Part shown: one piece after another, positions 4,679 through 36,105 of the stretch
How positions within the stretch are numbered: the first letter of the stretch is position 1
Layout of the letters: the number at the start of each line of letters is the position of its first letter
Origin: a virus
Virus record (IMG/VR): IMGVR_UViG_3300045988_176248
Coordinates: 1 to 41,244 of that record
Direction: 5' to 3' (one strand)
Length of the DNA stretch: 41,244 bases
Made by a program: the position numbers and the translations under genes
Notes under the pieces: model-generated
Told to the model about the DNA's origin: nothing
The model's input: the letters and a program-made list of their open reading frames with translations, nothing else
Databases searched by the model: none

Positions 4679-5561
4679 CTTCCTTACCTTCCTTAACTTC
4701 TATGACCTTGTGATTCGAGATAAACTTTGTAGCCTTGTAATTAACATCTTGGAGTAAAGCCCAGCCTCGGGGCGTTCTGTAGTATGGTTCCTTAATTAAC
4801 TTCTCAAGTTCATGAAGCTTCTGCCAGATAAGCGGCCACCCTTGCTTAATTACCTGAAGCTCCTTGATGTTCCTACTGCGGCAGCACCAGCACCCAGGCT
4901 TAATTAACCCCGAAGTGTAAAGCCGCCCTATTGCCCAACCCTTCCTGCTTAACCACTCAACACAATAGGCCTTGCTGCGGCCTTCGGCGATGTTAGGGCT
5001 AATTAACTTGAAGTTTTTGAGCACGGGCACTGAGAGGCGGTTTAGGGTAAGCTCAGCTGACCTTTCTGACGTACAGCCGAAAATTAGCTGGAACTCCAGC
5101 TGCTTCTCAGCAACTTTCTTCAAGTACTGCTCTTTAAGGTACCTGTTGATGAGAAGCCACTTAATTGACTCACCCCATCTCAATTTGCCACCGCACCAGC
5201 CGCGGCCCCGCTGCAACCGCTGTACGAAGCCCTGCCATTGAAGATTCTTTGAAGCATCTAGGGGTCTGTAGAGCTTCTCGATTGACTTATGCAGCATCTC
5301 ATACTCAAGGCGGCCTTGCAGCTCAGTAAACTTAATTAACTTCTCTCTGCAAATTGCCTTGAGTGCCTCGGCCGCCTGCTCCTGTTCTGGCCACTCGAAG
5401 CCCAAATTGACATAGACAAGTTCATCGCCTTGCTGCAGCTCACCACGCTCAAGTAACTTGCAGAAGGCCATTAGCGCCCCGGCACTCATTTTTGCCAGTA
5501 ACACCTTAGTGGTTTTGCGGCTCGTAGCCTCGTCGCTTGATTCTTCATTGATTAAAGTCAT
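4662..5561 (-). CDS. Hypothetical protein: first gene of the minus-strand block, basic and Trp/Cys-rich
   Basis: 299-aa ORF with a strong SD (ggaggaatcaagcaATG), about 25 nt downstream of a sigma70-type promoter. Its stop overlaps the next gene's start by 17 nt. No recognisable motif. Confidence 0.7.
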   Translation of the reverse strand: MTLINEESSDEATSRKTTKVLLAKMSAGALMAFCKLLERGELQQGDELVYVNLGFEWPEQEQAAEALKAICREKLIKFTELQGRLEYEMLHKSIEKLYRPLDASKNLQWQGFVQRLQRGRGWCGGKLRWGESIKWLLINRYLKEQYLKKVAEKQLEFQLIFGCTSERSAELTLNRLSVPVLKNFKLISPNIAEGRSKAYCVEWLSRKGWAIGRLYTSGLIKPGCWCCRSRNIKELQVIKQGWPLIWQKLHELEKLIKEPYYRTPRGWALLQDVNYKATKFISNHKVIEVKEGKEDGKRQ

Positions 5562-5584
5562 TGCTTGATTCCTCCTATTTAGCT

Positions 5585-5613
5585 AGCTTACCAAATAATT
5601 CGGCAGATGTCAA
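5585..5613 (-). promoter_or_regulatory. Sigma70-type promoter driving the minus-strand block
   Basis: Read on the minus strand: TTGACA, then a 17-nt spacer (tctgccgaattatttgg), then TAAGCT. The spacer ends in TGG, matching the TGn of an extended -10. It sits just upstream of the SD and ATG at 5561. Confidence 0.6.
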
Positions 5614-6081
5614 CATAGTAGCTGTGGCAAACTTATAGTCAATTAGCCATTAAAGTTGCTCTGGCATCTCTGGCAGCTTCTGGTAATTCGAGGCCGCTGG
5701 CAAGCAGCGGCTGACCAGCCGAAGTCAATTAGCTTCCCAGCCAGAAAGCCACCTCAGAGCATCTATGCTGCTTAAATGTTAATGATGCACCAACACAATT
5801 AACTACCAAGATTAGCCTAAGGTTCCTGCTTAGCCGGTTACTCGAGTTTCGCGGCAAGCCGCTCTGGCCACTGCAGAGTTAATTGACTTGTGAAGCTAAT
5901 CAACATCACAAGAAACCAGCCTCGGAATATGTCAATTAGGTTACATCCGCTGGAATTTCAATTTTCTTGCGAATTTGCGAAGGGTACATTTATATACGCC
6001 GGAGCCCCTAGCTTGTCTTTGGGGTGCAATAGCCCCTTTTGCTGGTGGGTAAAAAATTTTTGGTATTCATTGATTTTTCGC

Positions 6082-6110
6082 TTGCAATTAAAATTGAACT
6101 CTGGTAGAAT
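6082..6110 (+). promoter_or_regulatory. Sigma70-type promoter driving the plus-strand early/replication block
   Basis: TTGCAA, then a 17-nt spacer (ttaaaattgaactctgg), then TAGAAT, again with TGn immediately before the -10. It lies 63 nt upstream of the first plus-strand ATG (6173). Confidence 0.6.
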
Positions 6111-6172
6111 ACCCTTATATAAGCAAGGTTACCTATATATTGTTCAACAGAATTTTTTGAGAGGCTACTAAA

Positions 6173-6535
6173 ATGAATAGAATGATTAAAAGTAAAGCTA
6201 CAACCGCAACCGCAACAAACACAATTGCTTCAGCGTTAATTAAAGCCGTGCAAGTCAACGGCTACGACTACGAACAGCAAAAAGTGTTACTTGATAAACT
6301 GGCAATTTGCACACAAGAGGCCGGCGACGGTTACGGCATCATATTTTACTTTACGGATTATTCCGCAATTGAGTGCAACGACTTAACAAAGTCATTTACC
6401 GAATTTTACGGCGCGCGGCGTGATTTTGCGGAGATTGCAATGCGGATACAGTATTTTAACGGCTGTGCCGCCGATTGCCCCGCTTATTTACGCAACGACC
6501 TTTTAACGTGGTTAAAGGAAAACGACGCTGAATAA
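6173..6535 (+). CDS. Hypothetical early protein
   Basis: 120-aa ORF with SD gagagg 8 nt upstream. First gene after the plus promoter. Confidence 0.65.
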   Translation: MNRMIKSKATTATATNTIASALIKAVQVNGYDYEQQKVLLDKLAICTQEAGDGYGIIFYFTDYSAIECNDLTKSFTEFYGARRDFAEIAMRIQYFNGCAADCPAYLRNDLLTWLKENDAE

Positions 6536-6549
6536 TTATCGCAAGGCTT

Positions 6550-6582
6550 GCCGGTAGCCTTTAATTAAACCGGCTTTATTCT
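6550..6582 (+). terminator. Candidate weak intrinsic terminator
   Basis: Stem gccggt / accggc with a 13-nt loop that contains TTAATTAA, followed by tttattct. Confidence 0.35.
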
Positions 6583-6671
6583 ATGCGCCTTAATCGGTGC
6601 GCCTCTAAAATTGAACCGGCGGTAAACGCCGCCTAACGTAAACTAACTTTTAATTAAAAGGAATTAAGAAA

Positions 6672-7409
6672 ATGGAAAAAGAAGAAATTTTGAATGAATT
6701 AAATAGAATCAGTGCGGGTGATGCCGTACGTGTTGCCGTTGATGACAGTGGCAATTTAGTTGCCACTGTTGCCGGTGAATCAGCAAAAAGCGTATCTGTC
6801 CGTGTTATTGACGGTATTTCTAACCGTCAATTAAGTTGTCGTTTGATTAAGGATAAGCAGGGAAAATATGATGTGCTTTATACGAATATACCGGACGTAA
6901 TGGAAGTTGCTGGACTTAATGACATTTGCCGTGAATTCGTTGAAAAGTATTTTTTAAGCAATTATATCCGCAAACTGCTTACGCTTCCAAATCTTAACAA
7001 CATCGTGGATATTCTCACCCCGCAGAACGGCGGCAACGCCCAAGCTAACCCGCTTTCTAAGCCGTTCAACGCTCTGGTTAAAGCGCTGGTTGTTAGCCTT
7101 AAGGCTAATATGCCGGCAAAAGCAAGCTTGATTAATGAAAAGACGGTTAAGACTTTCTTAGCTGACTTGCAAGCCGCTAATCTTATCTTAGGCAACACCA
7201 CCGTGAAGGGTAAATCGGTTACCGTTGCCGACTACATTAAAGCTTTGATTAAGTGGCATTGTGAGAAGCAGAGCCCTAACGCCGTCAATTTCGCACACGG
7301 GGTGACTTTCTCACTCGATGATTATATTAGCTATGCGGTTGCGCTTGCCGCTAAAGCCGTTGACCGCAAAGTCGAAACAAGCATTGACGAAGATGACTTA
7401 GATATCTAA
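6672..7409 (+). CDS. Hypothetical early protein
   Basis: 245-aa ORF with SD aaaagga upstream. No recognisable motif. Confidence 0.7.
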   Translation: MEKEEILNELNRISAGDAVRVAVDDSGNLVATVAGESAKSVSVRVIDGISNRQLSCRLIKDKQGKYDVLYTNIPDVMEVAGLNDICREFVEKYFLSNYIRKLLTLPNLNNIVDILTPQNGGNAQANPLSKPFNALVKALVVSLKANMPAKASLINEKTVKTFLADLQAANLILGNTTVKGKSVTVADYIKALIKWHCEKQSPNAVNFAHGVTFSLDDYISYAVALAAKAVDRKVETSIDEDDLDI

Positions 7410-7426
7410 TTGCTTGCCGCAAAATG

Positions 7427-7460
7427 AGAGGGGCTTTAGTTGCCCCTCTTTTCTTGCTTT
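7427..7460 (+). terminator. Rho-independent terminator
   Basis: 8-bp GC-rich stem agaggggc / gcccctct, loop tttagtt, followed by ttttcttgcttt. Confidence 0.7.
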
Positions 7461-7529
7461 AAGTTACAACCTTTTCGTGCATTAACACAATTAAACCACA
7501 TAACACAACCACATTAAGGACTCACTAAG

Positions 7530-8204
7530 ATGACAAACTTCAATACATTTAATCAAAACGCAACCATTTACTACAATCTTAACATTTTCGCTAAACCTCA
7601 ATTAAAACAGCTATCTCAATTTACACTCGCTGATTTTTCCACCCTTGCGGAATATGTTGCTACGAATTGTCATACAATCGAACTTGTTAACGCACCATCG
7701 GAAAAAACAGCCTTGCTTAACTTGCTTAACTTGCTTAATTCAATCGACGCAATCGACGCCGCCGACAAAATCCGCTCCGGCTATTCCGCCGTTTTGCAAC
7801 ACTTGCCCCGCTTAACTATCATCGACTACATTAAACTCTTATCGGATAGCGCAAGCGCTAGCGCCGTTTACGGCTGTAAATTGACCGAAAACCCACAAGA
7901 AGCGCTCGCTGTTTTATCGAACTTAATTGACAAGCTAACCACCGAAACGGCAAGCAAGAGCTTGCGAATCAAGCAGTTTGAAGCAGAGCGCCGCAAGCAG
8001 CAGCAAGCACGCGCCGAACGTAGAGCTAGCTTAGAAGAAAAGCAGTTAATTGAGCTCCGCAAACAGCGGGCTAAGCAAGTTCAAGCGCAAAAAACTAACT
8101 TGAAGATGTTCATTAAGGCGCTTTCGGTTAGCGCCGATGAAGCTACTTTTTCCCAGAAGGTGCTTAGGGTGGCCGAGTTAATTGACTCTGACTTAGATTT
8201 GTAA
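7530..8204 (+). CDS. Hypothetical early protein with a basic coiled-coil-like C-terminal half
   Basis: 224-aa ORF with SD taagga. Contains the tandem codon repeats LLNLLNLLN (cttgcttaa x3 at about 7721-7747) and IDAIDA. The C-terminal segment EAERRKQQQARAERRASLEEKQLIELRKQRAKQVQAQK is K/R/Q-rich. Confidence 0.7.
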   Translation: MTNFNTFNQNATIYYNLNIFAKPQLKQLSQFTLADFSTLAEYVATNCHTIELVNAPSEKTALLNLLNLLNSIDAIDAADKIRSGYSAVLQHLPRLTIIDYIKLLSDSASASAVYGCKLTENPQEALAVLSNLIDKLTTETASKSLRIKQFEAERRKQQQARAERRASLEEKQLIELRKQRAKQVQAQKTNLKMFIKALSVSADEATFSQKVLRVAELIDSDLDL

Positions 8205-8291
8205 GCCTTCGGCCTTCGGCCTTTGGCCTAACTTGCTTAACAAGCACCTAATTAGCACTTACTTAACTACTTAACCTAAGTAACTTCCCTT

Positions 8292-8343
8292 AAAAATAGT
8301 ACTCACTTTGGACAAAATTTTCTGTCTGGGTGAGTACATTTTT
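8292..8343 (+). terminator. 52-bp imperfect palindrome followed by a T-run: candidate terminator of the early operon or a regulatory hairpin
   Basis: Arms aaaaatagtactcac...gtgagtacattttt with an inner pairing gacaaaa / ttttctgtc. Followed by tttgtc. Confidence 0.4.
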
Positions 8344-8376
8344 GTCTAAATTCAAACTTAATAAGGGCTGTAAAAT

Positions 8377-8449
8377 CGGTAATTAAGTTAAAAGTTGCTC
8401 AATGCACTCGGAATCCGACTGCATTTACCAAAAAATAAGTTAATTACCG
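8377..8449. repeat. 73-bp imperfect palindrome centred on 8413
   Basis: Outer arms cggtaattaa (8377-8386) and ttaattaccg (8440-8449) are perfect complements. The core tcggaatccga (8408-8418) is concentric with them. By hand alignment 28 of 36 positions pair. Confidence 0.7.
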
Positions 8450-8640
8450 ACTGGACGCACGTTATGACCTTTTCTACTAAGTGGTTTTTCAAGGTTAATT
8501 AACACTTTTTTCTTGACAGCCAGCCTCGCTTAGCTTCGCTGCGCTCAGCGACTCAATTAATTTCAATTCATCATAAAAGTTAATCGAGCCTATCGGCTTA
8601 ACACAAGTGCTCTGCACATTAACATAAAGAGGATAATTAA

Positions 8641-10431
8641 ATGCCCATTTCTATGAATGAGTTAATTAAACAACTCAATAAAGTAACACCGGCTAGCCAG
8701 CCGGCACAGGCCGGCCAAGCAACCCCAATGCCTGCAGCAACTTCGCTTTGCTCAGCAACACAAGCTAGTCAGCCAGCTAGCCAGCCAAGCAACACGGAAG
8801 CTCCGGCATCTTCGCTGCCTTCATTGCCACCAGCAACTCAATTACCTTCACCTTGTTCGTCATCTCAATTAGACACAAGCCAGCAAACCGCCGTGCGGAA
8901 TATCTGTTCAAGCCAATTAAGCATCCTCACCGGAGCCGCAGGCACAGGCAAGACCTTTACCTTAAAAGCTGTTTTGCAGGAGCTCTTAACTAAGTTCGAT
9001 GCGTCAAGCATCTTCCTCTGCGCTTTCACAGGCAAGGCGGTGCTTAACATCATCAAGTCAATTAAGTCAGACCCTGCCCTAGCACCCTTCATTCCCCAGT
9101 GCCTCACGTTGCACAAGTGGCTGCAATTTGTGCCGGAGTCAATTGAGATACCAGACCCAAGCAAGCCCTGCGGATACCGCCTAAGCCGGCGCTTTGTTCC
9201 GACCTTTAATTCAGCCAACAAGCGAATTGACACAAAGGTGTTAATTATCGATGAGGTGTCAATGGTATCTAACGAGCTAATGCTGCAGACCCTAGCTGCT
9301 TTAGACCTGCACAGCCTACATAAGTTAATTCTCGTTGGGGATATAAATCAACTTCAGCCAGTTATCGGCAAGACAAGCTTGGCTTACTTCGGGGCGCATT
9401 CTGGTTGCTCACTCAATTATCTTACCACTGTGCACCGGCAAGCTGATGGAAATGACATCGTCCAAGCAGCTCACCTCTTCAAGTCAGCCAACCTGCTTGC
9501 CCTGCAACAGGCCATCCAAGCAAAGCAGTTCAAGAACGTCAAGTTCATCAAGGCCGAAAACTACCTTGACCTCTACCGGATTATTGAGTTAATTAACGAG
9601 AAATACCACCTGCGCTTCAATGAACAAGAGGACTGCATTATCACCCCGACTAACATTGGAGCTACTGGACAAGAGGTTCTCAATCAGCGGCTCAACAAGT
9701 ACCTCAACGTAACTAAGCAAGCGGTGCTTTGCGGCGTGACAATTAAGTTATTCGGCGTCGGTGATAACGTGATGTTCACGAAGAACAATTACGAAGACGG
9801 CTACATCAACGGGACAGTAGGCCGCATAATTGAGATGCAACTTAATTCAGACGTGGTGGCTGGCGCCACAAATGCAGCATCAACAGAAACATCAACAACA
9901 GCAGCGCCCTGCGCTCAGCTCAGCCCTGATGAACTCGATAACTTAATTGACCAGTCAGCCCAGCAATCAGCTCAGCAAAGTGATGGGCAGAGCCCATCAG
10001 ATGATGAAGGCTTCTTCTCAAAGAAAGCAAGTCATACGCTGACCATAGAATTCATTGACATCTATGGCACTTTACGTCAAATCAGCTTGAGCACCATAGG
10101 CGAGATAAGTAACTTGCTCCTCGCCAACGCCATCACCTGCTACAAAGCGCAAGGCTCAACGTACAAGCGGTGCATCATCAATTTACTTGACTGGAAAAAT
10201 GGCAACTCAATTAACAACGAGTACGCCTACACTGCCTTGACGCGGGCTTCTGATTTTGCTTGGGTAATCTACAACAAGAGTGGCTTAGCCAAGCTCAAAA
10301 ACCGCCAGCTGGCAGGTTCTTCGGACAAGGAGAAAATTGAGAATCTTATCTCAAGTAACAGCGACAGCGAAACCGCCGCTTACATTGAGGACTTCCTAAG
10401 CAAGTGGCTTAGCGGCACGCCTGCGGCTTAG
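8641..10431 (+). CDS. SF1 DNA helicase (RecD/Dda-like) with a low-complexity N-terminal extension and an internal insert
   Basis: Walker A GAAGTGKTF, Walker B VLIIDEVSMV, LILVGDINQLQPV, TVHRQ, CYKAQGSTY, YTALTRA. The N-terminal ~80 aa are P/S/Q/A-rich. A second low-complexity insert is present (AATNAASTETSTTAAP...SAQQSAQQSDGQSPSDDEG). Confidence 0.9.
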   Translation: MPISMNELIKQLNKVTPASQPAQAGQATPMPAATSLCSATQASQPASQPSNTEAPASSLPSLPPATQLPSPCSSSQLDTSQQTAVRNICSSQLSILTGAAGTGKTFTLKAVLQELLTKFDASSIFLCAFTGKAVLNIIKSIKSDPALAPFIPQCLTLHKWLQFVPESIEIPDPSKPCGYRLSRRFVPTFNSANKRIDTKVLIIDEVSMVSNELMLQTLAALDLHSLHKLILVGDINQLQPVIGKTSLAYFGAHSGCSLNYLTTVHRQADGNDIVQAAHLFKSANLLALQQAIQAKQFKNVKFIKAENYLDLYRIIELINEKYHLRFNEQEDCIITPTNIGATGQEVLNQRLNKYLNVTKQAVLCGVTIKLFGVGDNVMFTKNNYEDGYINGTVGRIIEMQLNSDVVAGATNAASTETSTTAAPCAQLSPDELDNLIDQSAQQSAQQSDGQSPSDDEGFFSKKASHTLTIEFIDIYGTLRQISLSTIGEISNLLLANAITCYKAQGSTYKRCIINLLDWKNGNSINNEYAYTALTRASDFAWVIYNKSGLAKLKNRQLAGSSDKEKIENLISSNSDSETAAYIEDFLSKWLSGTPAA

Positions 10432-10523
10432 CCGAAACAACTACAGCTGCAACAATTGAAACCTAAATAACAGCAACTCAACTAACAACTTTATGCCGTA
10501 AGGCATAATGGAAGGACATTGAA

Positions 10524-11564
10524 ATGAACAACACAATTAGCACTTCATGTGCTTCGCACACTCAAAAGGTAATCCACGTTGAAAGCGGAGCCGAACTTTT
10601 GAAGTTAATTAAGTCAGACTCTCAATTAGCACAGGCAGATGTAATCCGGCTAGTGGAGAAAGCCAACGGATTCTACGCCGCAATTCCACTAGCTGACTTA
10701 CTTGAAGCCTCAACGGCAATTAAGTTGCAGCAAAGCCCCAAGAAGCTCTGTTTCACTGGAAGAGCCAAGTTAAGCTACACCTTCGAGGCCGCCCAGCTGA
10801 AGAACCTAAATCAGGTTCTCGAGTTCCTTAGCTACTCCCTGCAGGACATCACAATTAAAGCGATGAACAATCAAACCGCCGGAGCTTACGCAAACATAAT
10901 TGTCCTCGGAGAACTCACTGTAGCCGGCGAGCATCAGAACTTTCCATTAACTTCAAGTGCCTTACGCCGCAAAGTTATAACAGAGCAGCTTGACTTTCTC
11001 CCTTTCGCTATGTTCAATGCAGCACAGCGCAACCCACTTGACGGCTCTTATCAGAACTTAATTAAGTGGAATTCGGGCATGAGCTTCGAGCAGCAAGCAG
11101 CGAGCCCGCTTGGGACTGTGGACTTAATTATGTTGGAATACAGCGAAACCACCTTGCGTTCTGTCTTGCGCCAAAGGCACTGGGAGGGCTTTGTCTTTTA
11201 TGACTCAAGTAGCTCCTTCATCCCAAGCAAGCGCACGAGCCGGGTCGCCGCCCTGAAGTTCCCCGTGTTTATTCTGGCTCAAGTAACTTCATTCGCTTAC
11301 AACTACACAACGAGGGGCCGAATCATAACTCAAGTAACTTGTTGTACTGCCGAAACCGTGCTACCAGATGGGACTACATTGCCTTCAAAGCGTGTAATCC
11401 TGGGCTCTGGAATCGACGACTTAATGCGCAGTAAGCTCGAGGCCGGCTTTCGGGTTGACCTCTTAATTAAGTGCGAACATGTTAATCGAGATGGCAACCT
11501 AATTAAGCCCGTAATTTCCAGCAAGACTTACATAGATGAAGCTAAGGCAAGTGGTTACGAATAG
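10524..11564 (+). CDS. Hypothetical protein in the replication module
   Basis: 346-aa ORF with SD ggaagga. No recognisable motif. Confidence 0.7.
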   Translation: MNNTISTSCASHTQKVIHVESGAELLKLIKSDSQLAQADVIRLVEKANGFYAAIPLADLLEASTAIKLQQSPKKLCFTGRAKLSYTFEAAQLKNLNQVLEFLSYSLQDITIKAMNNQTAGAYANIIVLGELTVAGEHQNFPLTSSALRRKVITEQLDFLPFAMFNAAQRNPLDGSYQNLIKWNSGMSFEQQAASPLGTVDLIMLEYSETTLRSVLRQRHWEGFVFYDSSSSFIPSKRTSRVAALKFPVFILAQVTSFAYNYTTRGRIITQVTCCTAETVLPDGTTLPSKRVILGSGIDDLMRSKLEAGFRVDLLIKCEHVNRDGNLIKPVISSKTYIDEAKASGYE

Positions 11565-11670
11565 CGATGCTAGCGCATAGCAAGTAACTTCAACAACATA
11601 ACACCAGTAACAATTCACTCAATTCACAAACGTGGCTTTAGTCACTAGCCTCACTGAAAGGACAATTAAG

Positions 11671-12312
11671 ATGACAACAATAACAAGATATTCCAAGCCG
11701 GCTTCCAGAAGAAGCCGTCAAGCAACTTCCAAGTCAAGCAAGTTCACCCAGCGGAAAGCCACCCCAAGTATCCCAAATTCCGTCAGACTAGCCGAAGAAG
11801 TTAAAGCATACAGGAAAGCTAAGCTGGCCTTTCGCGTTTACGCTTCAATGGGCGATTTTTCCAAGGCACTCAAGGAACTTATGAAACTCAATGAAATCAC
11901 TCGCTTCTCCGTGCACCCAGCTATCACAGGCAGCGGCCCAGAGGGTGCTTGCTTCAGTAAGTACCCCGGCAGATGGACTCAAGGAATGCTCAAGCTGATT
12001 CCAGCGAAAGAGTTAATTAATTTCCAACTTGAACACCGCTCTAAAATCTGCTTTGGAAACATCAAGATAATTGACTCTCACCTGAAACAGCGGCGCCACA
12101 AAATCGTTTACAACTTAATTGCCTCGGAGAAACTCAAGCTAACTCGAAGGGAGCTTAGCCACTACATTCACGAGTGCCTTGCACAGCAGCCCTATAGCTA
12201 CCCCCTTTGTTTCTTCGCTGATTGGGAAATCAAAGTTAATTGGGTTGAACAGACCATTGAGGGCACAAGTGGCAAAGCCGAAGCCGCAGGCGAGGCCGCC
12301 CATGCCGATTAA
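11671..12312 (+). CDS. Hypothetical protein with a basic N-terminus
   Basis: The ORF track begins at a GTG (11632). The ATG at 11671 has SD gaaaggacaattaagATG, like neighbouring genes. N-terminus RYSKPASRRSRQATSKSSKFTQRK. Confidence 0.65.
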   Translation: MTTITRYSKPASRRSRQATSKSSKFTQRKATPSIPNSVRLAEEVKAYRKAKLAFRVYASMGDFSKALKELMKLNEITRFSVHPAITGSGPEGACFSKYPGRWTQGMLKLIPAKELINFQLEHRSKICFGNIKIIDSHLKQRRHKIVYNLIASEKLKLTRRELSHYIHECLAQQPYSYPLCFFADWEIKVNWVEQTIEGTSGKAEAAGEAAHAD

Positions 12313-14930: not shown

Positions 14931-14985
14931 CAACAAAGTGGCACTTAAGTGCCTTGGATTAATTTAACGAACGAAGTGAGTTAAA

Positions 14986-15942: not shown

Positions 15943-15949
15943 CCCCTTC

Positions 15950-15981: not shown

Positions 15982-16048
15982 ATATGCACTACATTAAGTG
16001 CACCTCAATAAATTAACATTAACCTATAAGTAAAGAAAGGAATTTACT

Positions 16049-29044: not shown

Positions 29045-29062
29045 AACTTAATCTCCTTCAAA

Positions 29063-29683
29063 TTAGAAAAGGCCACCTGGGCTAAATTGGCCCTTAATAC
29101 CACCAGACAATTTATAAGCTTTTTTACTCGTGGTGCTGGTTCCTTGCGACTTAGTTTCAGCACCTTTCAAGACGTTAAGCAGGCTGTTAAGAGCTTCCAA
29201 GCTAATTGACTCATCCTGAGCCAGAGAGTTAAGCAGCACCTGGCTCGCATTAAGTTGCTGATTACCGGCTTGAGCTTCGAGTTCAGCACGTTTTCCTGCT
29301 AATTGAGTCGCAGCATTAGTAACGGCCTCGTCGTAGAAAGCCTGCACAAGTGAGTTGTCAGCGGCACCAACAGACCTAGCTAAGTCCTGATAGCTCTGGC
29401 CGAGTGCTTCGTCCGACTGTTGCTTAGCGGCGGCCATAATAGCATCTACATCAATATTGCCGCCTTCGGCAAGTTGACCCAAAGTGTCATAAGCTCCGGT
29501 GGCCCGAGGGTCTTCAGTGTTAATTAGGTCACTATAAGCGTCAAGGTTATCCAAGGCCGCTTCATTGAGAGCGTCAAGTAACTCGGACCTAAATTGTGTA
29601 GTATATGAACTTTCCTGCGTCTTAGACTTTTCTTTAGAATAAGAGCCAGAAAGCTTACTGGTTAATCCGGTCATACCAAACAT
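29063..29683 (-). CDS. Putative internal virion protein (gp14-like by position)
   Basis: 206-aa ORF with SD aaggag. Ala/Gln-rich helical composition. Confidence 0.35.
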   Translation of the reverse strand: MFGMTGLTSKLSGSYSKEKSKTQESSYTTQFRSELLDALNEAALDNLDAYSDLINTEDPRATGAYDTLGQLAEGGNIDVDAIMAAAKQQSDEALGQSYQDLARSVGAADNSLVQAFYDEAVTNAATQLAGKRAELEAQAGNQQLNASQVLLNSLAQDESISLEALNSLLNVLKGAETKSQGTSTTSKKAYKLSGGIKGQFSPGGLF

Positions 29684-29702
29684 TTAATTATCTCCTTTCA
29701 TC

Positions 29703-29969
29703 TTAATTAACTTTCTTCAAAATTGGCCGCTCGTTGCACAAGCCATAGGCGCGTTCTAGAAATGCCGTCCATTGAACAAGGTCGCCATTGGTCTTAATTG
29801 ACGGTCGAACGAGCTGGGCGCATTGAACTTTCTGTACAATTACCCGCTCAGTCGAGCAAGCACTCAGCAGGCACAGGGCTGCTATAATAATCAGCGCAAC
29901 TGTTATTGCTGCTGTTAATTTCATTAAAACGCTTATTAACTTCAACAGAAGCTTGAGTGATTTTATCAT
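29703..29969 (-). CDS. Putative o-spanin (Rz1-like outer-membrane lipoprotein)
   Basis: SD aaggagcaaatagATG. Hydrophobic signal ending in the lipobox LLSAC, followed by a short ~50-aa mature part. Starts inside the i-spanin gene in another frame and extends past it (overlapped architecture). Confidence 0.55.
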   Translation of the reverse strand: MIKSLKLLLKLISVLMKLTAAITVALIIIAALCLLSACSTERVIVQKVQCAQLVRPSIKTNGDLVQWTAFLERAYGLCNERPILKKVN

Positions 29970-30120
29970 CTATTTGCTCCTTAACTTTTATAAGTTCATT
30001 AACTTCAGTTTTCGCCCTAGCATATCCAGCGGCTTCGCGGCGTTCTGCATACCAAATTGACATCATCAAGCCAATTAGCTGCAGGGTCAAAAAAGCGCCT
30101 ATGAGCTTAATGCTTCCCAT
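29848..30120 (-). CDS. Putative i-spanin (Rz-like)
   Basis: The ATG at 30120 has SD aaaggacaagtgcgATG. N-terminal TM IKLIGAFLTLQLIGLMMSIWY, then a charged coiled-coil region. Immediately downstream of the holin candidate. Confidence 0.55.
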   Translation of the reverse strand: MGSIKLIGAFLTLQLIGLMMSIWYAERREAAGYARAKTEVNELIKVKEQIDDKITQASVEVNKRFNEINSSNNSCADYYSSPVPAECLLD

Positions 30121-30508
30121 CGCACTTGTCCTTTTCTGATATCTTAATGTGGTCGGTGCCGGCATCAAACGAGATGCTTACATCTTTATACTTAATTGAG
30201 TACAGCTTAGAAAGCGCCTGACTTATGTGCTCACCAAGCAGAAAGAGTCCAGAAACGCATGAAGCCCAAATTATGATATAGGCAATCAATTTAGTTTCCA
30301 TGTGCGGCTCGTGTAAAGTAACTAGATACACAACAGTAGCACACGGGATTACTGTAATTATCCACTTCCTTGAGATGAACCTAAAAGCCAGCTCTCGCTT
30401 GTTGCATTGCATCTTAAGTAACCACGAGGTGATAAATGGCACGAATGTACTCAGCAAGATAATTGCTATCAATGCTAAGCAAGGCATTATTTCAAAGTCT
30501 ATCAGCAT
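30107..30508 (-). CDS. Putative class I holin (three TM segments, charged C-terminal tail)
   Basis: 133 aa. Hydrophobic segments PCLALIAIILLSTFVPFITSWLL, WIITVIPCATVVYLVTL and LIAYIIIWASCVSGLFLLG. K/D/E-rich tail. Located directly upstream of the spanin pair. Confidence 0.5.
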   Translation of the reverse strand: MLIDFEIMPCLALIAIILLSTFVPFITSWLLKMQCNKRELAFRFISRKWIITVIPCATVVYLVTLHEPHMETKLIAYIIIWASCVSGLFLLGEHISQALSKLYSIKYKDVSISFDAGTDHIKISEKDKCDGKH

Positions 30509-30543
30509 TGTAAATTCCTTTCTTAATTAGCTTCTCTCATAAT

Positions 30544-30572
30544 AATTGTACCAATAATTCGTGTAAATGTCA
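30544..30572 (-). promoter_or_regulatory. Sigma70-type promoter upstream of the holin-spanin cassette
   Basis: Read on the minus strand: TTGACA, then a 17-nt spacer (tttacacgaattattgg), then TACAAT, with TGn before the -10. Shares CGAATTATT with the promoter at 5585-5613. Confidence 0.55.
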
Positions 30573-30586
30573 ACTTGCCGCTTCAG

Positions 30587-31165
30587 CTACACTACAACAG
30601 TTAATGCAACACAGAACCAAAGTAAGCCGCCCCAAACCCACTCACCTAAGTTCCAAGCGTTTTTGCCTTCATCACAATTAAGTGCTTGGCAGACCATTGT
30701 GGCAATTAGGTATGCGGGGCCCATTAACAGCCCAGACAGCATTAGGGGTATGGAGTATAAGGGTAAGCCAATTAAGAACGTCCAGACAAGGCCACGTAGG
30801 CAGAGGCCGCAAAACCCGTAGACTCTCGGTGAACTTATATTCTCAATTAACTCATCTATGGCTGCGCACTCACTTCGAGAGCTCTGCTTCCCAGTAGTCA
30901 ATTCACCTATGTAGGTGCCCCAGCCACAAATCTGCTGGCCGAGGTACATAGCAAGGCAATTGAGTATTGCATAGGTAAGCGGGCTTACAGCTTCAGGGCA
31001 GTAGCTTGAGGCGAAATTCGCCATAGTTAAGCCATACGTGAGTGGCTGCCAGAGTTTATTAAGTGGCAACTCGCCTAACCCAGGTAGCTCAAGGCCGCCC
31101 CGAATCCGGTTAACTAAAGCCCCGTATAGGGTTAGAATGATAATTGAGCGTATAGTGTTAATCAT
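30587..31165 (-). CDS. Polytopic membrane protein of unknown function
   Basis: 192-aa ORF with SD ggagg. At least five hydrophobic stretches, Cys/Trp/Gly-rich. Lies between the fibre genes and the holin promoter. Confidence 0.65.
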   Translation of the reverse strand: MINTIRSIIILTLYGALVNRIRGGLELPGLGELPLNKLWQPLTYGLTMANFASSYCPEAVSPLTYAILNCLAMYLGQQICGWGTYIGELTTGKQSSRSECAAIDELIENISSPRVYGFCGLCLRGLVWTFLIGLPLYSIPLMLSGLLMGPAYLIATMVCQALNCDEGKNAWNLGEWVWGGLLWFCVALTVVV

Positions 31166-31176
31166 CTTTAATCCTC

Positions 31177-32730
31177 CTAATCTTTCTTCATTAAATCATA
31201 CATGCTAACGCGACAGATTTTTGATCCTAAGACAATCTTATTCTCAGCCATATTTCGGCTCATCCGTTCATTAGGGTTGTTAATTTGCACGAAGTAAACA
31301 TAATTGCGGAAGAAGCCAATGACAGCCCATTTACTTGAACCGTTAAAAATCGGCTTAAATTCCTTATATACATTACTGCCAGGAATTCCGGAGTAGGTAA
31401 ATTGTATCAACCTAATTGAGTAATCAGCTCTCTGAACAATTAGGTAATTAGCCATTGAATGCAATGAAATAACTTTATTATTATTGTCCGCTACAGCTAT
31501 GCCTGTATTAGTAAAGCTAAGCCTGTTGTTTGGTATGGTTTTTCCTCCTTGAGGCTGAAAATTGTAATCTAAGATAAGTAACGTATGCGGCGCATCGGTG
31601 TTGGTTCTTAGCACCGCTAAGAATCTATCATAAGGTGCCGAGTTGTTCATAGCCCAAGGGGCGTAAATTGAGATTTTCTGTCCATTAGTCGAGTCCCAAA
31701 AAGTCTGGTTAGTTGACATTATACCGTCAATGTTCTGCTCAGATGTTTGCGCACTCCAACATACTTTAGCATAGCTAAGTGAATCACCGTAAAAATTTGC
31801 CACTTGGCTATACGTAAACATATCAACCATAATGCAAAATGCGCCATACAAGCCATTAACATAATGATAAGAGCAACTCCATGGAGTTGCTTTATCAAAT
31901 TTCGACGCACTTCCTCGATGTAGATATAACTTAATTGCTGTTTTTTGCGATACCCAATTTCCTCCAGTCGAATAAGAACCACCAGATTTAAGCCCGTTGT
32001 TTTCACTTAATTGAGATTCTGCACCGGGAGCTCCATTAACTCTGCTTGCAATAACACCCATCATTGACGTGTTGTTTCTAAAGGGGCCGTAAATTTGGCT
32101 ACTGCCTGAAAAGCCAGAAACTCCACTTATGTATGCTCGCTTCATTAAGACCCAATTCTCAGGGTTGGCCGAAGCATCTCTGGCGGTTCGCAAGTTAATC
32201 TGATTGAGGCCTGAATCAGCGTAATAAGTAGATGCGTACCAATGCTTCTGTGCAGGTTCATAAACAGGACCAAACATCATGGGTGTGTTATCGTTTATAG
32301 TTACAGGACTGTTGCTTGAAGTGAAAGTTAATTGACTATCAAGATAATTAAAGTTACTTATCATTTCAACACTGTCAATAGCTTCTTCATCATTACTTGA
32401 ATTAGCAGTAAATCCAGTACCTTTGAATCTAATCATATTTCTAAATTGAACCAGCCCAGCTGGTAATATTTCATTTAGAGCACCACTCAAGTAATAATTC
32501 TGTCTACAATTATATATACTTTGCCCAGTACTTAGGAATCTTCCACGAAGCCTATCCTCATACATTTGCATATAAGGATTGTAAATTGACCGCCCTGCGT
32601 GGTCAGCATTATATTCACTTGTCATCTGAGGTTCATCTGGGTAAGTCAAAGTAAGCCCATTGAACCATTCAAGAGGGACTAAATTCGAGGCCCCTTTTCC
32701 AAGGGGCCTTAATGAAGTTCTTATCACCAT
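31177..32730 (-). CDS. Hypothetical tail or receptor-binding protein
   Basis: 517-aa ORF with SD ggagg. S/N/G/Y-rich composition typical of beta-rich fibre or spike proteins. In the fibre cluster. Confidence 0.4.
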   Translation of the reverse strand: MVIRTSLRPLGKGASNLVPLEWFNGLTLTYPDEPQMTSEYNADHAGRSIYNPYMQMYEDRLRGRFLSTGQSIYNCRQNYYLSGALNEILPAGLVQFRNMIRFKGTGFTANSSNDEEAIDSVEMISNFNYLDSQLTFTSSNSPVTINDNTPMMFGPVYEPAQKHWYASTYYADSGLNQINLRTARDASANPENWVLMKRAYISGVSGFSGSSQIYGPFRNNTSMMGVIASRVNGAPGAESQLSENNGLKSGGSYSTGGNWVSQKTAIKLYLHRGSASKFDKATPWSCSYHYVNGLYGAFCIMVDMFTYSQVANFYGDSLSYAKVCWSAQTSEQNIDGIMSTNQTFWDSTNGQKISIYAPWAMNNSAPYDRFLAVLRTNTDAPHTLLILDYNFQPQGGKTIPNNRLSFTNTGIAVADNNNKVISLHSMANYLIVQRADYSIRLIQFTYSGIPGSNVYKEFKPIFNGSSKWAVIGFFRNYVYFVQINNPNERMSRNMAENKIVLGSKICRVSMYDLMKKD

Positions 32731-32748
32731 TAACTTATTCCTCCTAAT

Positions 32749-34800
32749 TTACGCCGTGGTGTCATATTCGGCTTCGATATTAGCTATCCATTGAGGCTCG
32801 TAGCCCGGAAGTGCCGCCGTTGAATTATACCTAAGTGAACGCCGCAAGGCAATTAACTTATATGGAGCACTCGACTCTTGGAATACACCATCAGAATTAT
32901 CAATCCAGTAAGGTGTTATAGCTGAGCCATTAACTGTAAATTCGACGCCAGTTACCAACGAGCCGTAGCTTGAGTCAGAGCAGTCAATTAGCAGCTCAAA
33001 AGTAATTACCGCATCATCCGGAATGCCAGCCGGAACTGTGATAGCAACTGGCAATTTAGCACTGCTGTTCATATGAGTTACTCGAATCGTATAGTGCTTA
33101 ATCTGGTTATCAAGAGTAACCGCAGCACTATCAACAGCGCTAATTTGAGAGTTCCTTGACATCACTTTCTCGGTTGCGGCGCAGAGCATATTGGCCGTAA
33201 ATGTACTTCCAGAAGTCCATTCAGATGTTGCCATAGCAAGCGAGCCATTGGAGTCGATTAGAGGCCACTTAGTTGAATCTGACAAAGTGTACTCAGAATA
33301 ATCATCTCCTGGGTTCTTAGCCGCTACTTCAATCTGACCGCTAAATGTACTTCCAATCCCAAGTGAGCCAGTTGCAACAGCAATGTAAGGTGCTGATAAG
33401 CGGGAAGTAAAGTAAGCCGAACTTAATGCGTTACCAGATGAAGCCATATCCCAAGAATCATATTGAATATTTCCGTTAAGGATAGACTTAATTCTGTACA
33501 TATATAATCCACGGTTAATTGTACCGTTATTCGGCAGAGTTACTTGACCGCTGTCAGCAAAAATCCACCCACCAACTTCTGGTGTTAATCCCGAGAATAG
33601 GGCCGAAAATTCCTCAACAGTGTTTGGTACGTCATTAAAATCACTTAGTACGCCATAAATGGTTTGGTTAATCGTGATATTCTGTGAATTACTGACTTCA
33701 GCAACATTAGCCATCTGGCAGATAGTTAAGTCAGCAGAGCACACAATGAACTGGTCGAGGTAAATTGCGCGGCTGCTTAACTGGCTTAGGTTCCAATTAA
33801 GGTCTTTCAAGCCAAGCTCCGCTTCTTGCACAGAGGTAAACAGCTGGCTTTCGTCAGAAACCTGCTGAAGCAGCAAGAGGATTTGGCCAGTTTCAATTAA
33901 CACCAACCGAAATACCACAAATTTACTCGTGCCGTTACTTGAGTCAAGCAGAGTTTTCGCGCTCGTTGTTGTATTGTAATAATAGGGTTGAATATTCGGT
34001 TGAGCAGTTTCGCCATCATGGTCATAATTAGGGTAGTAATATTTGAAGTTAATTGACGACATAGCCGGAAACAGCTTACGGTCAGGCCGCTGTGAATTAC
34101 CGGCGTAGTTGATGCCTTCCTTAATTAAGTCGAAACTTTGGCAACTCAAGCCCTTGGCCGCATCCGAAGAAGTTACTTGAGCGGCGAAGTTAACTACCAT
34201 TATAGGGTGGTCGCGGCCAAATGTACTTGAATCAGCCAAAAACGGCCGCACTGAAAGTTCCGAGGCCGTTAAGTCGCCATCTGCATTAACATAGATGTTG
34301 CACAGTGCTAAGTAGATGTCATAATCTGATGTGCTTATTTCTCCAATGCCACTTTCATTAAGTCCAACATAAACAACTTGGCCTGCATATTTGGGCCCAA
34401 TTGTGATAGTTTCTTCCTGATGTTGCACCAAATCCGTGCCGTCAAACCACTGGAAGGACTTAAGTAAGATGGTATTAGTCGAGCTAACCGTGGCAATATC
34501 GGCCGTATAGGGTTTGGTCAGCCCAATTAACAAGTCCTTCTTTTTCGGCAATGCAGCTGCATTTGCACCAGACTCTGCGGTAACAGATGACAGCTGGTCT
34601 TCAAGTTCCTGAAGTTCATCTGCTACTTTACTTCTAACTGCATCGGCCGCCACGTTATTCATATCAGCACGAGCCAAGTCAATTCTAGTGCTGTTCAAGT
34701 AAACGCTAAGCGTCTGGCCGGTTTCGGTGCTGATTTCACGGTCGTTGTAATCAACACCATCTCCAGTAACATTAGCAATTTGTAAAACGCCCTTGCTCAT
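32749..34800 (-). CDS. Putative tail fibre or tail spike protein
   Basis: 683-aa ORF in the fibre cluster. S/T/N/G-rich. N-terminal coiled segment VADELQELEDQLSSV. Confidence 0.45.
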   Translation of the reverse strand: MSKGVLQIANVTGDGVDYNDREISTETGQTLSVYLNSTRIDLARADMNNVAADAVRSKVADELQELEDQLSSVTAESGANAAALPKKKDLLIGLTKPYTADIATVSSTNTILLKSFQWFDGTDLVQHQEETITIGPKYAGQVVYVGLNESGIGEISTSDYDIYLALCNIYVNADGDLTASELSVRPFLADSSTFGRDHPIMVVNFAAQVTSSDAAKGLSCQSFDLIKEGINYAGNSQRPDRKLFPAMSSINFKYYYPNYDHDGETAQPNIQPYYYNTTTSAKTLLDSSNGTSKFVVFRLVLIETGQILLLLQQVSDESQLFTSVQEAELGLKDLNWNLSQLSSRAIYLDQFIVCSADLTICQMANVAEVSNSQNITINQTIYGVLSDFNDVPNTVEEFSALFSGLTPEVGGWIFADSGQVTLPNNGTINRGLYMYRIKSILNGNIQYDSWDMASSGNALSSAYFTSRLSAPYIAVATGSLGIGSTFSGQIEVAAKNPGDDYSEYTLSDSTKWPLIDSNGSLAMATSEWTSGSTFTANMLCAATEKVMSRNSQISAVDSAAVTLDNQIKHYTIRVTHMNSSAKLPVAITVPAGIPDDAVITFELLIDCSDSSYGSLVTGVEFTVNGSAITPYWIDNSDGVFQESSAPYKLIALRRSLRYNSTAALPGYEPQWIANIEAEYDTTA

Positions 34801-34824
34801 TTTCTATCCTTTCGTCAATTAAGT

Positions 34825-36105
34825 TTAATAAATCCGCATCCGCATAAAGTTGCTGAAGCTACTCTGGTTGTAGCCCCAAACTACACAATTATCTCTGTAG
34901 GCCAAACCATTCTTATTAAACCGCACGCGGTAATTAGCAGGAATGATGAATTGGCCGCTCGAGCAACCAGAGCTGCTTCCGGTGAAGTGGCCGTAAAACA
35001 GATGGTTTTCTAATTGAGTGCCATTTGGGCTAGAGATAATTATGTTGGCTGTTGAACCACCTGGCCCTGCAGCAGTGGCACTAATGAAGACTGGCTGACT
35101 CCACGATTTGTTACTTGTGAACAGCGACCCGTTGTATAGCTCTGAGGAGTAATTCGGGGCGCCGTTTGACGAGGTAGACCTAATTAACGGTCGAACACAA
35201 GTCGAAGCCCCTTTGTCCCAAATAAAGTAACTTCCTTTAATAGTACCATTGTTAGTTGAGCTGTGAGTCTTAGTAGCTATTCCTTTAGTTCCTCCAGAAT
35301 CTAAGTAAAGCTGCATCTGGGCTTTAAGTGGGTTCATCATAGAAGTGAGGGTCGTAGTGCCGCCATCGCAGGTTACGACTCCATTGCCTTCCAAGTACTT
35401 AAGCGACTCAAAAGCAGTCCACATGGGTTGCTGAGAATTTCCACTCGAGTAATCTCCCTGGAAAGTATCTTTGAAGCAAGCGGCAGTGTAATTACCAATG
35501 TAGACGGAGCCAGCTCCGGTAATGAAGTCAGTGCCACTAACGGTTCCATCTACAATGAGTTTGCAGCCTTCTTCAATTGTCAAGGTGTACGCACTAGAGC
35601 CAATTAAGTTGAAACAGTGCAAAACGGCTCCACCTGACAGCGTCACATTACCAACCATATTGAATGTGGCATAAGGTGCTTCGACCCGTTTTCCAGCGAA
35701 GCTACTTAGGTTGGCATTTGAAGCATCTTGGCAAAAAATGAACCCACTTGAGTCAGCTGCTGCAGCGCCGCCCAGTGACACCTTTGCTAATTGAGGGTTA
35801 TTTCCAGCCAGCACATCGTTGCCGCCTTCGCTGATGAAAGTTCCTTCATAGGTGTTTAAGGCCAACTTAGTTACAGGAATATTCTCAAGCTGGTTGATAA
35901 TATCAGATGAAGCTACGTTGCTAAAATCGGCCCGAGCAAGCCAATGGCCTCCTGGAGTGGCGCCATCGTGAATTGCCACTGTCCAGTTTCGAGTGTCAAC
36001 GAAGAACTCTCGAGGGTTATAAACTGCATTGATTTCTTCCAAGTTACCGGAGCCCAACTGCGAAATTCGGCCTTGGTAATCACTATTAGGTAATCTATCT
36101 GTCAT
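34825..36105 (-). CDS. Tail fibre protein with an Mtd-N-like N-terminal domain
   Basis: REFFVDTRNWTVAIHDGATPGGHWLAR closely parallels, from memory, the N-terminus of the Bordetella phage BPP-1 Mtd protein (REITVDTDKNTVVVHDGATAGGFPLAR). The rest is G/S/T-rich. Confidence 0.6.
   Translation of the reverse strand: MTDRLPNSDYQGRISQLGSGNLEEINAVYNPREFFVDTRNWTVAIHDGATPGGHWLARADFSNVASSDIINQLENIPVTKLALNTYEGTFISEGGNDVLAGNNPQLAKVSLGGAAAADSSGFIFCQDASNANLSSFAGKRVEAPYATFNMVGNVTLSGGAVLHCFNLIGSSAYTLTIEEGCKLIVDGTVSGTDFITGAGSVYIGNYTAACFKDTFQGDYSSGNSQQPMWTAFESLKYLEGNGVVTCDGGTTTLTSMMNPLKAQMQLYLDSGGTKGIATKTHSSTNNGTIKGSYFIWDKGASTCVRPLIRSTSSNGAPNYSSELYNGSLFTSNKSWSQPVFISATAAGPGGSTANIIISSPNGTQLENHLFYGHFTGSSSGCSSGQFIIPANYRVRFNKNGLAYRDNCVVWGYNQSSFSNFMRMRIY

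Follow-up and report, generated by a model that had tools for sequence, protein, structure and literature searches.

The HIP1 palindrome (highly iterated palindrome 1, GCGATCGC) of cyanobacteria is over-represented within and between genes and is conserved beyond background, which has been read as selection; it has no known peptide, RNA or expression role, and its function is unknown (PMC5861425). The subject here is a pair of short words, AGTWACT (motif 2, with the extended form AAGTWACTT) and TYAATTRA (motif 1), in the genome of an uncultured podovirus-like phage from human gut metagenomes. The window is the whole 41,244-nt stretch that was analyzed (IMG/VR record IMGVR_UViG_3300045988_176248), and it is a near-complete genome. 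AGTWACT is a genuine double-stranded DNA (dsDNA) word kept by purifying selection in this abundant gut podophage, and it coexists and partly overlaps with a much denser AATT-centred family, S-TYAATTRA-S.

Other dispersed words are known from bacteria and phages. The uptake sequences of Pasteurellaceae (uptake signal sequences, USS) and Neisseria (DNA uptake sequences, DUS) are asymmetric 9-12-mers read by a bacterial competence receptor. They occur at about 1/kb or denser, in both orientations and mostly within genes in coding-permitted frames, alter peptide content, and are accounted for as a self-tag that selection or molecular drive maintains. The stoperators of cluster A mycobacteriophages are dispersed repeats of a single short word to which a phage protein binds; they are 13 bp long, asymmetric, mostly intergenic and oriented with transcription, and there are about 20-35 per genome. 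Chi and KOPS (FtsK-orienting polar sequences) are over-represented words of octamer scale with an additive benefit per site; they are asymmetric and strand-skewed, and some phages accumulate the Chi of their host.

Over-representation and reading frames of AGTWACT

The over-representation of the second palindrome, proposed in a first-pass annotation of the sequence, is confirmed. AAGTWACTT has 13 exact copies (dinucleotide shuffle mean 0.68, maximum 3) and AGTWACT has 38 (mean 5.76, maximum 10), where the annotation had given at least 12 against about 0.5 and about 35 against about 7; all of its 12 sites stand, and the thirteenth, at 32351, had been missed. Both words also exceed the codon-shuffled null that it had named as a refuting test. 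Within-gene synonymous codon shuffling yields 3.05 copies of AAGTWACTT (standard deviation 0.99, maximum 7) and 9.0 of AGTWACT (maximum 16). The stricter dicodon shuffle, which preserves the protein, codon usage and codon-junction dinucleotides, yields 5.0 (maximum 10, z 5.3) and 16.9 (maximum 25, z 7.4). TYAATTRA occurs 96 times, against 5.2, 29 and 52 in the dinucleotide, codon and dicodon shuffles. All three are short palindromes many-fold over-represented within and between genes, the excess of AGTWACT being roughly four- to sixfold. Densities are 0.9/kb for AGTWACT, 2.3/kb for TYAATTRA and about 10/kb for the half-site family described below. The two motifs show no co-localization or regular spacing, and their counts are Poisson-like.

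The 36 coding copies of AGTWACT occupy five of the six possible frame and orientation classes, the sixth being a stop codon: xAG-TTA-CTT ([Q/E/K]LL, 12 sites), xxA-GTA-ACT (xVT, 10), AGT-TAC (SY, 5), xxA-GTT-ACT (again xVT, 5) and AGT-AAC (SN, 4). The other two of the 38 are intergenic, at 8278 and 11582, as first reported. An assignment of ELL to minus-strand genes and QVT to plus-strand genes had also been made; the use of several frames holds and the strand rule fails, since QVT is found in minus-strand genes and KLL in plus-strand genes. The central W shows no significant runs of orientation along the genome (14 runs against 19.5 expected, z about -1.9), and the motif-1 variant TYAAGTRA lies on the coding strand 22 times and opposite to it 23 times. 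The several frames, both orientations and the intergenic copies place the signal at the level of DNA rather than of peptide or RNA, and AGTWACT is read as dsDNA. Together with the strong conservation of silent sites, they bear out the earlier argument for selection at the DNA level.

Since TRA gives a stop codon in the other frames, motif 1 is frame-locked, at 76 of its 83 coding sites. Across all protein-coding genes there are 98 [L/S]-I-[N/K/D/E] tripeptides, against 33 expected from amino-acid composition; TYA-ATT-RAN encodes 76 of these, and in this way the DNA word has reshaped proteins. The major capsid gene (39740-40891, minus strand) holds no TYAATTRA, one AGTWACT and 1.7 half-sites/kb against about 10/kb genome-wide, and this near-absence suggests that the family is costly where constraints on coding or expression are at their greatest.

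A codon or amino-acid artefact is ruled out by the codon and dicodon shuffles and the multi-frame use. Hidden off-frame stops were rejected as a cause as well: off-frame TAA and TGA are mildly enriched, an excess explained by the motifs, and TAACT is enriched only after AAT, AAG and CAT. Forbidden neighbouring words were also rejected, the one-step synonymous neighbours not being depleted (TYAATCRA 20 against 22.5).

Conservation across strains

Conservation was measured over 15 strains with 89-95% nucleotide identity, all of which carry the word trait. Alignments span the whole genome. Third-codon-position divergence is 0.060 for AGTWACT, 0.023 for AAGTWACTT and 0.025 for TYAATTRA, and 59%, 38% and 53% of the sites are invariant, that is, unchanged in all strains. 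The genome background, taken from random k-mers, has a divergence of 0.185, with 22% of 7-mers and 18% of 8-mers invariant. AT-richness as a mutational cold spot is ruled out by AT-rich control 7-mers, which diverge by 0.171 (27% invariant). The values for AGTACT are 0.14 and 11%, for AAGTGAS 0.23 and 18%, and for AGTSACT 0.41 and 0%.

At 10 of the 13 nine-mer sites the 7-mer core is kept in at least 13 of 14 strains, often with adjacent silent bases varying. The constraint footprint of motif 1 is S-TYAATTRA-S and stops exactly at the edges, with adjoining silent sites at or above background. The same codons change 10-18-fold less inside motif 1 than outside it (ATT 0.7% vs 12.4%, TTA 2.1% vs 15.2%, TCA 1.8% vs 21.3%). 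AGTWACT and TYAATTRA sites are thus conserved between related genomes above comparable sequence, and AGTWACT is under purifying selection even at silent codon positions. Silent sites inside both words have a rate of evolution 3-8 times lower than elsewhere in the genome. This is a real and non-trivial finding.

In the conserved structural module (about 91% identity) strains have 16-17 of 17 motif-1 sites, and 6 of 7 sites of AGTWACT, at common positions. In the early region 5600-8700, identity falls to 75-80% in strains whose other regions are about 91% identical. Motif sites in this fast-evolving region (about 78% identity) turn over, with about 7 shared, 3 lost and 5 gained, and the density is constant.

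Relation of AGTWACT to TYAATTRA

AGT and ACT separated by 0-12 bases are enriched only at spacings of 1 (43 against 13.3) and 6 (37 against 15.6), the other ratios being 0.6-1.8, and the two preferred spacings proposed earlier are therefore found. ACT-N6-AGT is likewise enriched (28 against 16.9). The accompanying claim, that motif 1 carries the same AGT...ACT arms, fails. Its arms are A-S-T with G and C nearly equal (97 G and 75 C adjoining TYAATTRA), GTYAATTRAC makes up 22 of the 79 STYAATTRAS sites where about 25 are expected if the two sides are independent, and AGTYAATTRACT, the form of motif 1 quoted in the first-pass annotation, accounts for only 6 of the 96 TYAATTRA sites.

The kinship of the two words lies in the half-site. 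Upstream of AGTAACT there is a T-Y-A consensus (24/38 T, 26/38 Y, 25/38 A) and downstream only a T at +1 is enriched, so the flanks of motif 2 are not mirror-symmetric. The flanks of AAGTAA match those of AATTRA, with T and Y upstream and S and T downstream. AAGTAACT has the same flanks as the motif-1 half-site AATTRAST and differs from AATTAACT by one base, and AAGTAAGT, which is without the ACT arm, is also enriched (18 against 4.7). The composite TYAAGTAACT has 11 copies against 0.7 expected (about 15-fold). TAACT is enriched after AAT (55 against 13), AAG (25 against 4.5) and CAT (21 against 7.7), and is at expectation after other prefixes. Among single substitutions of TYAATTRA, the central T-to-G change is as enriched as the motif (TYAAGTRA 47 against 12.4), whereas A or C at this position is not. 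Other strains have AATTAACT in place of the intergenic site at 8278, a direct interchange of motif 2 with the motif-1 half-site. The shared flanks, the prefix dependence of TAACT, TYAAGTRA, the composites and the swap at 8278 indicate that motif 2 is in large part the K=G form of a fuzzy half-site, AAKTRAST.

Half-sites are a unit in their own right. With no partner half, AATTRAS is enriched and conserved (0.063), whereas AATTRAW is not (0.172), and the unit of the motif-1 family acts like a half-site of 7-8 bp, AA[T/G]T[A/G]A[C/G]T. Strict cooperativity between the palindrome halves of motif 1 was rejected, the excess of both halves being only modest (96 against 77 expected). AAGTWACTT is the AGTWACT core with a general A/T flank. 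Without the 5' A, AGTAACT is still enriched (13 against 4.8) and AGTAAGT is not (8 against 7.1); AGTAACT sites without upstream TYA are as conserved as those with it (0.063 vs 0.054), and AAGTAAC is more conserved than AAGTAAG (0.050 vs 0.111). The near-self-complementary AGT-W-ACT is favoured beyond the half-site model, and is therefore probably read as a 7-bp odd palindrome too.

Words in related phages

Three syntenic relatives, L361, L362 and L364, were reached via homologues of the lineage-restricted gene 4662-5561 (Table 1). The window and L362 share TYAATTRA although their GC contents are 10 points apart. L361 and L364 share CTASTAG despite different avoidance fingerprints, GATC being present in the first and absent from the second and TTTAAA the reverse. 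These two comparisons, from few genomes, suggest that the word tracks the phage lineage. The counts of GATC are 0 in L022, L023, L362 and L364 and 39 in L361, and GTCTC is also absent from L362. The excess of GANTC in L024 and L026 is 2-3-fold against an order-2 model and only about 1.2-fold against order 3. Some 40 other distant terminase relatives show nothing comparable.

L361 also has CTAWTAG (24 against 6.1) and CTAACAG (23 against 6.4). The alignment made from 16 distant capsid proteins proved too divergent as a seed for a locus search, and the P0122 and P0124 queries had no matches in IMG/VR.

Table 1. Copies of AGTWACT and AAGTWACTT in the window, the companion family, and the words of related genomes (counts are observed vs expected; codon breaks are given as hyphens)
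Location	Word or form	Context	Conservation or counts
5451..5459	AAGTAACTT	gene 4662-5561(-), AAG-TTA-CTT (KLL)	core 15/15 strains; 9-mer this strain only, others end in C
8278..8286	AAGTAACTT	intergenic 8204-8641	core 2/15 strains; AATTAACT at the orthologous place in several others
10107..10115	AAGTAACTT	helicase gene 8641-10431(+), AGT-AAC-TTG (SNL)	9-mer 15/15 strains
11281..11289	ctcAAGTAACTT, composite TCAAGTAACT	gene 10524-11564(+), CAA-GTA-ACT (QVT)	9-mer 14/15, core 15/15
11332..11340	ctcAAGTAACTT, composite TCAAGTAACT	gene 10524-11564(+), QVT	9-mer 14/15, core 15/15
11582..11590	AAGTAACTT	intergenic 11564-11632	9-mer 7/15, core 9/15 strains
16848..16856	AAGTTACTT	PolA gene (+), GAA-GTT-ACT (EVT)	kept 13/14 strains
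18533..18541	AAGTTACTT	PolA gene (+), AAG-TTA-CTT (KLL)	kept 14/14; silent base just before varies
20315..20323	AAGTTACTT	primase/helicase-like gene 19979-21226(+), KLL	9-mer 13/14, core 14/14
21859..21867	AAGTTACTT	lysozyme-like gene 21248-21898(+), AGT-TAC-TTT (SYF)	kept 4/13; rest have AAGCTACTT
32351..32359	AAGTTACTT	gene 31177-32730(-)	kept 11/11 strains; absent from the first-pass list
34170..34178	AAGTTACTTga, reverse complement TCAAGTAACTT (composite)	gene 32749-34800(-), QVT	14/14, flanking bases vary
35225..35233	AAGTAACTT	gene 34825-36105(-), SYF	kept 14/14 strains
511..517	AGTWACT core	QLL	kept 14/14 strains
1429..1435	AGTWACT core	ELL	kept 14/14 strains
1606..1612	AGTWACT core, composite TCAAGTAACT	ELL	kept 12/14 strains
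2166..2172	AGTWACT core	GVT	kept 14/14 strains, flanks variable
2285..2291	AGTWACT core	SYC	kept 14/14 strains
2541..2547	AGTWACT core	QLL	kept 4/14 strains
4181..4187	AGTWACT core, adjoins TTAATTGA at 4174		kept 2/14 strains (variable region)
14070..14076	AGTWACT core	SNF	
18232..18238	AGTWACT core	VVT	
19443..19449	AGTWACT core	SYC	
22085..22091	AGTWACT core	ELL	
22372..22378	AGTWACT core	LVT	
22767..22773	AGTWACT core, composite TCAAGTAACT	SYL	
22913..22919	AGTWACT core, composite TCAAGTAACT	QLL	
25123..25129	AGTWACT core	EVT	
25456..25462	AGTWACT core	RVT	
25782..25788	AGTWACT core	SNL	
25829..25835	AGTWACT core	QLL	
28136..28142	AGTWACT core	PVT	
28773..28779	AGTWACT core, composite TTAAGTAACT	QLL	
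29577..29583	AGTWACT core, composite TCAAGTAACT	ELL	
30317..30323	AGTWACT core	LVT	kept 11/11 strains
33076..33082	AGTWACT core	RVT	kept 12/12 strains
33538..33544	AGTWACT core, composite TCAAGTAACT	QVT	7-mer 1/13 strains, but TCAAGTAA kept
40517..40523	AGTWACT core, sole copy in major capsid gene	AVT	kept 14/14 strains
1..41244	companion family		96 TYAATTRA (79 = STYAATTRAS), 47 TYAAGTRA variants, ~10 AAKTRAS half-sites/kb
L362	TYAATTRA, AATTAACT, AGTWACT, AAGTAACT	capsid 77% identical, GC 35%	TYAATTRA 35 vs 5.1; AATTAACT 24 vs 6.8; AGTWACT 14 vs 3.5; AAGTAACT 2 vs 3.0
L361 1-20960	CTASTAG, AGTWACT; without motif 1	capsid 64%, GC 36%	CTASTAG 39 vs 3.2 (shuffles); AGTWACT 10 vs 4.1 (marginal)
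L364 1-12309	CTASTAG, AGTWACT; without motif 1	capsid 65%, GC 37%	CTASTAG 19 vs 5.0; AGTWACT 12 vs 3.4
L022, L023	no hyper-abundant word	capsid 41-43%, GC 35-40%; without the 4662-5561 gene	
L024 1-21206, L026 1-17063	GANTC (CcrM/HinfI-type site)	capsid ~30%, GC 55-58%	15-18/kb, both orientations

Possible readers of the words

The chances appear about even that both words are selected recognition sites for one or more sequence-specific proteins that bind or modify dsDNA. Such readers would be dimeric, of the kind that recognizes palindromes of the Type II methyltransferase or restriction type, and may be encoded by the phage or by the host. Site density would matter more than exact position, and across the genome selection would maintain roughly one family site per 100 bp. 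The sites would then form a genome-wide tag comparable to HIP1, uptake sequences or Chi, with protection, replication or packaging as candidate uses. A density kept despite turnover in the early region, and a trait that is lineage-specific, are as expected for a specific reader. The different words in related lineages also point to a reader that is specific and evolvable.

Several points weigh against recognition sites. Palindromes of the restriction type are normally avoided, not accumulated, in phages. AGTWACT is strongly strand-skewed in the relatives, with 12 of 14 copies in L362 and 11 of 12 in L364 on one strand, and it may be a by-product of their own words (TACTA-rich words in L364). 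No methyltransferase, restriction or obvious DNA-binding domain was found with Pfam, PHROGs and NCBIfam in the scanned open reading frames (ORFs) of at least 100 aa; the 113-aa ORF 12179-12520, the 29848-30508 ORFs, 37942-39717 and ORFs below 100 aa lay outside the scan. A host enzyme is a possible reader. Two scans of 185,579 species genomes found no relative, and a host-wide signature is therefore possible. Conservation by itself cannot separate selection from strong drive by biased repair, and the sequence alone is compatible with one reader or with two.

A more specific form of the recognition-site proposal, which we consider unlikely and put forward tentatively, is that this podophage family tags its own DNA with lineage-specific palindromes (TYAATTRA with AGTWACT, CTASTAG, or high-density GANTC) that are read or marked by a fast-evolving phage-encoded factor. 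The tag would separate phage DNA from host DNA for packaging, replication or protection, as a viral counterpart of uptake sequences and HIP1. One candidate is a lineage-restricted protein of the PP-loop/PAPS (3'-phosphoadenosine 5'-phosphosulfate) reductase fold adjoining the terminase genes. It is the 299-aa product of gene 4662-5561 (minus strand), which lies just upstream of the small and large terminase genes, and homologues are present in L361, L362 and L364, which include the CTASTAG lineages, and absent from L022 and L023. Its structure model (mean predicted local distance difference test score 74.6) has the PP-loop ATP-pyrophosphatase fold of TilS, NcsA and PAPS reductase. One homologue is annotated as PAPS reductase at source and one carries PF01507. 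The PP-loop is degenerate (MSAGAL/SMGAPS, not SxGxDS), and the WCGG and CWCCR motifs are invariant. Enzymes of the PP-loop/PAPS-reductase fold write sequence-selective phosphorothioates in gut bacteria (PMC12914056). The protein is a possible nucleic-acid-modifying enzyme. It is a lead only, without a link to the motifs. The genes for proteins of about 300 aa in L024 and L026 were considered as its positional equivalents and dropped, having no homology to it.

Two independent readers, for example two specificities of the methyltransferase or restriction type, one for the even palindrome TYAATTRA and one for the odd AGTWACT, with an accidental overlap of sequence, would explain why AGTWACT sites without upstream TYA are conserved like the composites. 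Other odd palindromes whose central base is degenerate are found in relatives (CTASTAG and, at high density, GANTC), and AGTWACT is over-represented in L364 and marginally in L361, both without motif 1. This explanation nevertheless seems improbable, as the shared flanks and the roughly 15-fold enrichment of TYAAGTAACT suggest one graded preference, the enrichment in relatives is strand-skewed and may derive from TACTA-rich words, and no enzyme gene was found in the scanned ORFs.

The model originally proposed for the window has one dimeric factor bound to (A)AGT/ACT(T) half-sites 1 or 6 bp apart. Its basis in sequence kinship and in spacing peaks at 1 and 6 alone is sound, and the greater enrichment of AGTAACT than AGTAAGT without the 5' A and the greater conservation of AAGTAAC than AAGTAAG favour it too. 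The shared AGT/ACT arms and the single dimer do not hold up. Half-sites at spacings 5 bp apart cannot both be bound by a rigid dimer, since this difference is half a helical turn and puts them on opposite faces of the helix. Further, the G and C of the motif-1 arms combine as independence predicts, ACT-N6-AGT is enriched too, the flanks of motif 2 are asymmetric, AAGTAAGT is enriched without an ACT arm, and L362 has motif 1 without enrichment of AAGTAACT. The model is accordingly rated as quite unlikely.

Little credence is given to a non-adaptive drive, in which context-specific mismatch repair or biased gene conversion during frequent phage recombination turns near-motifs into motifs, so that the words build up and seem conserved while serving no function themselves. 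There is precedent: in E. coli, CCWGG becomes more frequent through Vsr repair, and uptake sequences are explained by molecular drive. The phage genome includes a recombination module (Sak4-like annealase, PD-(D/E)XK exonuclease, Dda-like helicase), the family is fuzzy with enriched one-mismatch variants, and sites turn over at constant density. On the other side, sites keep their positions (16-17 of 17 at about 91% identity) instead of being continually replenished, no gene resembling Vsr was found, and the capsid gene, nearly free of the family, shows that selection can oppose such a drive. Positional conservation is the argument that was used for selection on HIP1 (PMC5861425).

A by-product of host composition or coding constraints (codon-pair bias, amino-acid usage, off-frame stops, forbidden neighbouring words) would fit the frame-locking of motif 1, the mild enrichment of off-frame TAA and TGA and the avoidance of many AT-rich palindromes, but is very improbable, as the observed counts exceed even the dicodon shuffle (z 5-14), AGTWACT occurs in five frame classes, neighbouring words are not forbidden, TAACT enrichment is limited to specific prefixes, AT-rich control 7-mers are not conserved, the window and L362 share the word across 10 GC points, and no bacterial contig among the metagenome matches listed has dispersed dual enrichment.

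That last result comes from motif-triplet scans of IMG/VR and JGI metagenomes, in which, among the matches listed, the dense ones from outside this phage were a CRISPR array and a protein tandem repeat (L346). The array is on an unrelated contig (L252, Ga0209149_1000030), where positions 2600-4240 hold a CRISPR-like array of 23 units with a 36-nt repeat containing GTCAATTAAC; the motif pattern alone brought it up.

The phage genome

The genes identified in the window encode a portal, a large terminase, an SU10-type major capsid protein, a Dda-like helicase, a PD-(D/E)XK exonuclease, a Sak4-like annealase, a family A DNA polymerase (PolA), a D5-like primase/helicase and a 1,771-aa virion protein. 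No tRNA genes were found in the genome and no repressor or integrase in the scanned ORFs, and it is a lytic-type phage. The 281-aa product of 13099-13944 (plus strand), whose function is unassigned, has a C-terminal Cys4 zinc-ribbon-like motif (CCICG...CLNC), and may be a protein that binds nucleic acid.

Contigs of 40.4-41.3 kb that are circularly permuted, and whose capsid proteins are 98-99% identical, occur in hundreds of human-gut metagenomes. A nucleotide search of 50,697 deposited phage genomes gave no match to the window, and the best matches of PolA, in LUZ24-like and Aeromonas phages, are only about 23% identical.

Several words are depleted in the window: GATC (3 against about 98 expected), GTCTC (5 against 36), TTTAAA (0 against 15.6), CATG (33 against 85), and also ATTAAT, GTTAAC and ACTAGT. 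This depletion is a restriction-avoidance fingerprint that differs between lineages. Many AT-rich palindromes are avoided. Some GC-rich words are enriched, namely AAGCGGCC/GGCCGCTT (14 against about 2), GGCCGC (57 against 25) and CGAGGCC. AAGCGGCC/GGCCGCTT and companions are intragenic and in both orientations (e.g. 2906, 4830, 12784, 13039, 13398, 14596, 18199 and 21841). The GC-rich words (AAGCGGCC, GGCCGC) are not part of the system, as they are not conserved (third-position divergence 0.12-0.17).

Comparison with known systems

Stoperators resemble the phage words in having dozens of copies of a short word spread over a phage genome. They differ in that AGTWACT is coding at 36 of 38 sites, in both orientations, and belongs to a family of hundreds of sites. 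Chi and KOPS are polar, whereas the phage words are palindromic and their oriented variants have no skew (22 vs 23).

Type II recognition sites are close in form. The phage words are palindromes of 7-10 bp with degenerate positions, including the odd ones AGT-W-ACT, CTA-S-TAG and GA-N-TC, and AGT-W-ACT and T-Y-AATT-R-A have the 4-8 bp palindromic form, degenerate positions allowed, of such sites. Type II sites are normally depleted in phages, as GATC and GTCTC are here, whereas these words are enriched and conserved. No cognate enzyme is encoded in the scanned ORFs, and we know of no enzyme with AGTWACT or TYAATTRA specificity. Phages are known for avoiding short palindromes, and this one avoids GATC, GTCTC and TTTAAA yet accumulates two others.

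Uptake sequences are matched in density, with about 1 site/kb in both orientations and mostly within genes. They differ in that the phage words are palindromic and viral, rather than asymmetric words tied to competence.

HIP1 is the closest analogue of the phage words. The HIP1 sequence itself, GCGATCGC or a close variant in a cyanobacterial chromosome, is not what is seen in this human-gut phage, which has no CGATCG and 3 GATC. HIP1 is a chromosomal trait of a bacterial phylum, whereas the phage words are AT-rich, comprise a fuzzy family and an odd palindrome, sit in a phage and change between lineages (TYAATTRA/AGTWACT, CTASTAG, GANTC); no counterpart of them in a host was found. If a reader exists, the words would amount to a genome-wide self-tag of a new kind, in a human-gut virus that is very common. 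Why HIP1-like palindromes exist has been an open question for more than 20 years, and it is testable here in a recodable 41 kb genome. What HIP1 and the phage words have in common is a short, hyper-abundant palindrome that occurs within and between genes and is conserved between related genomes.

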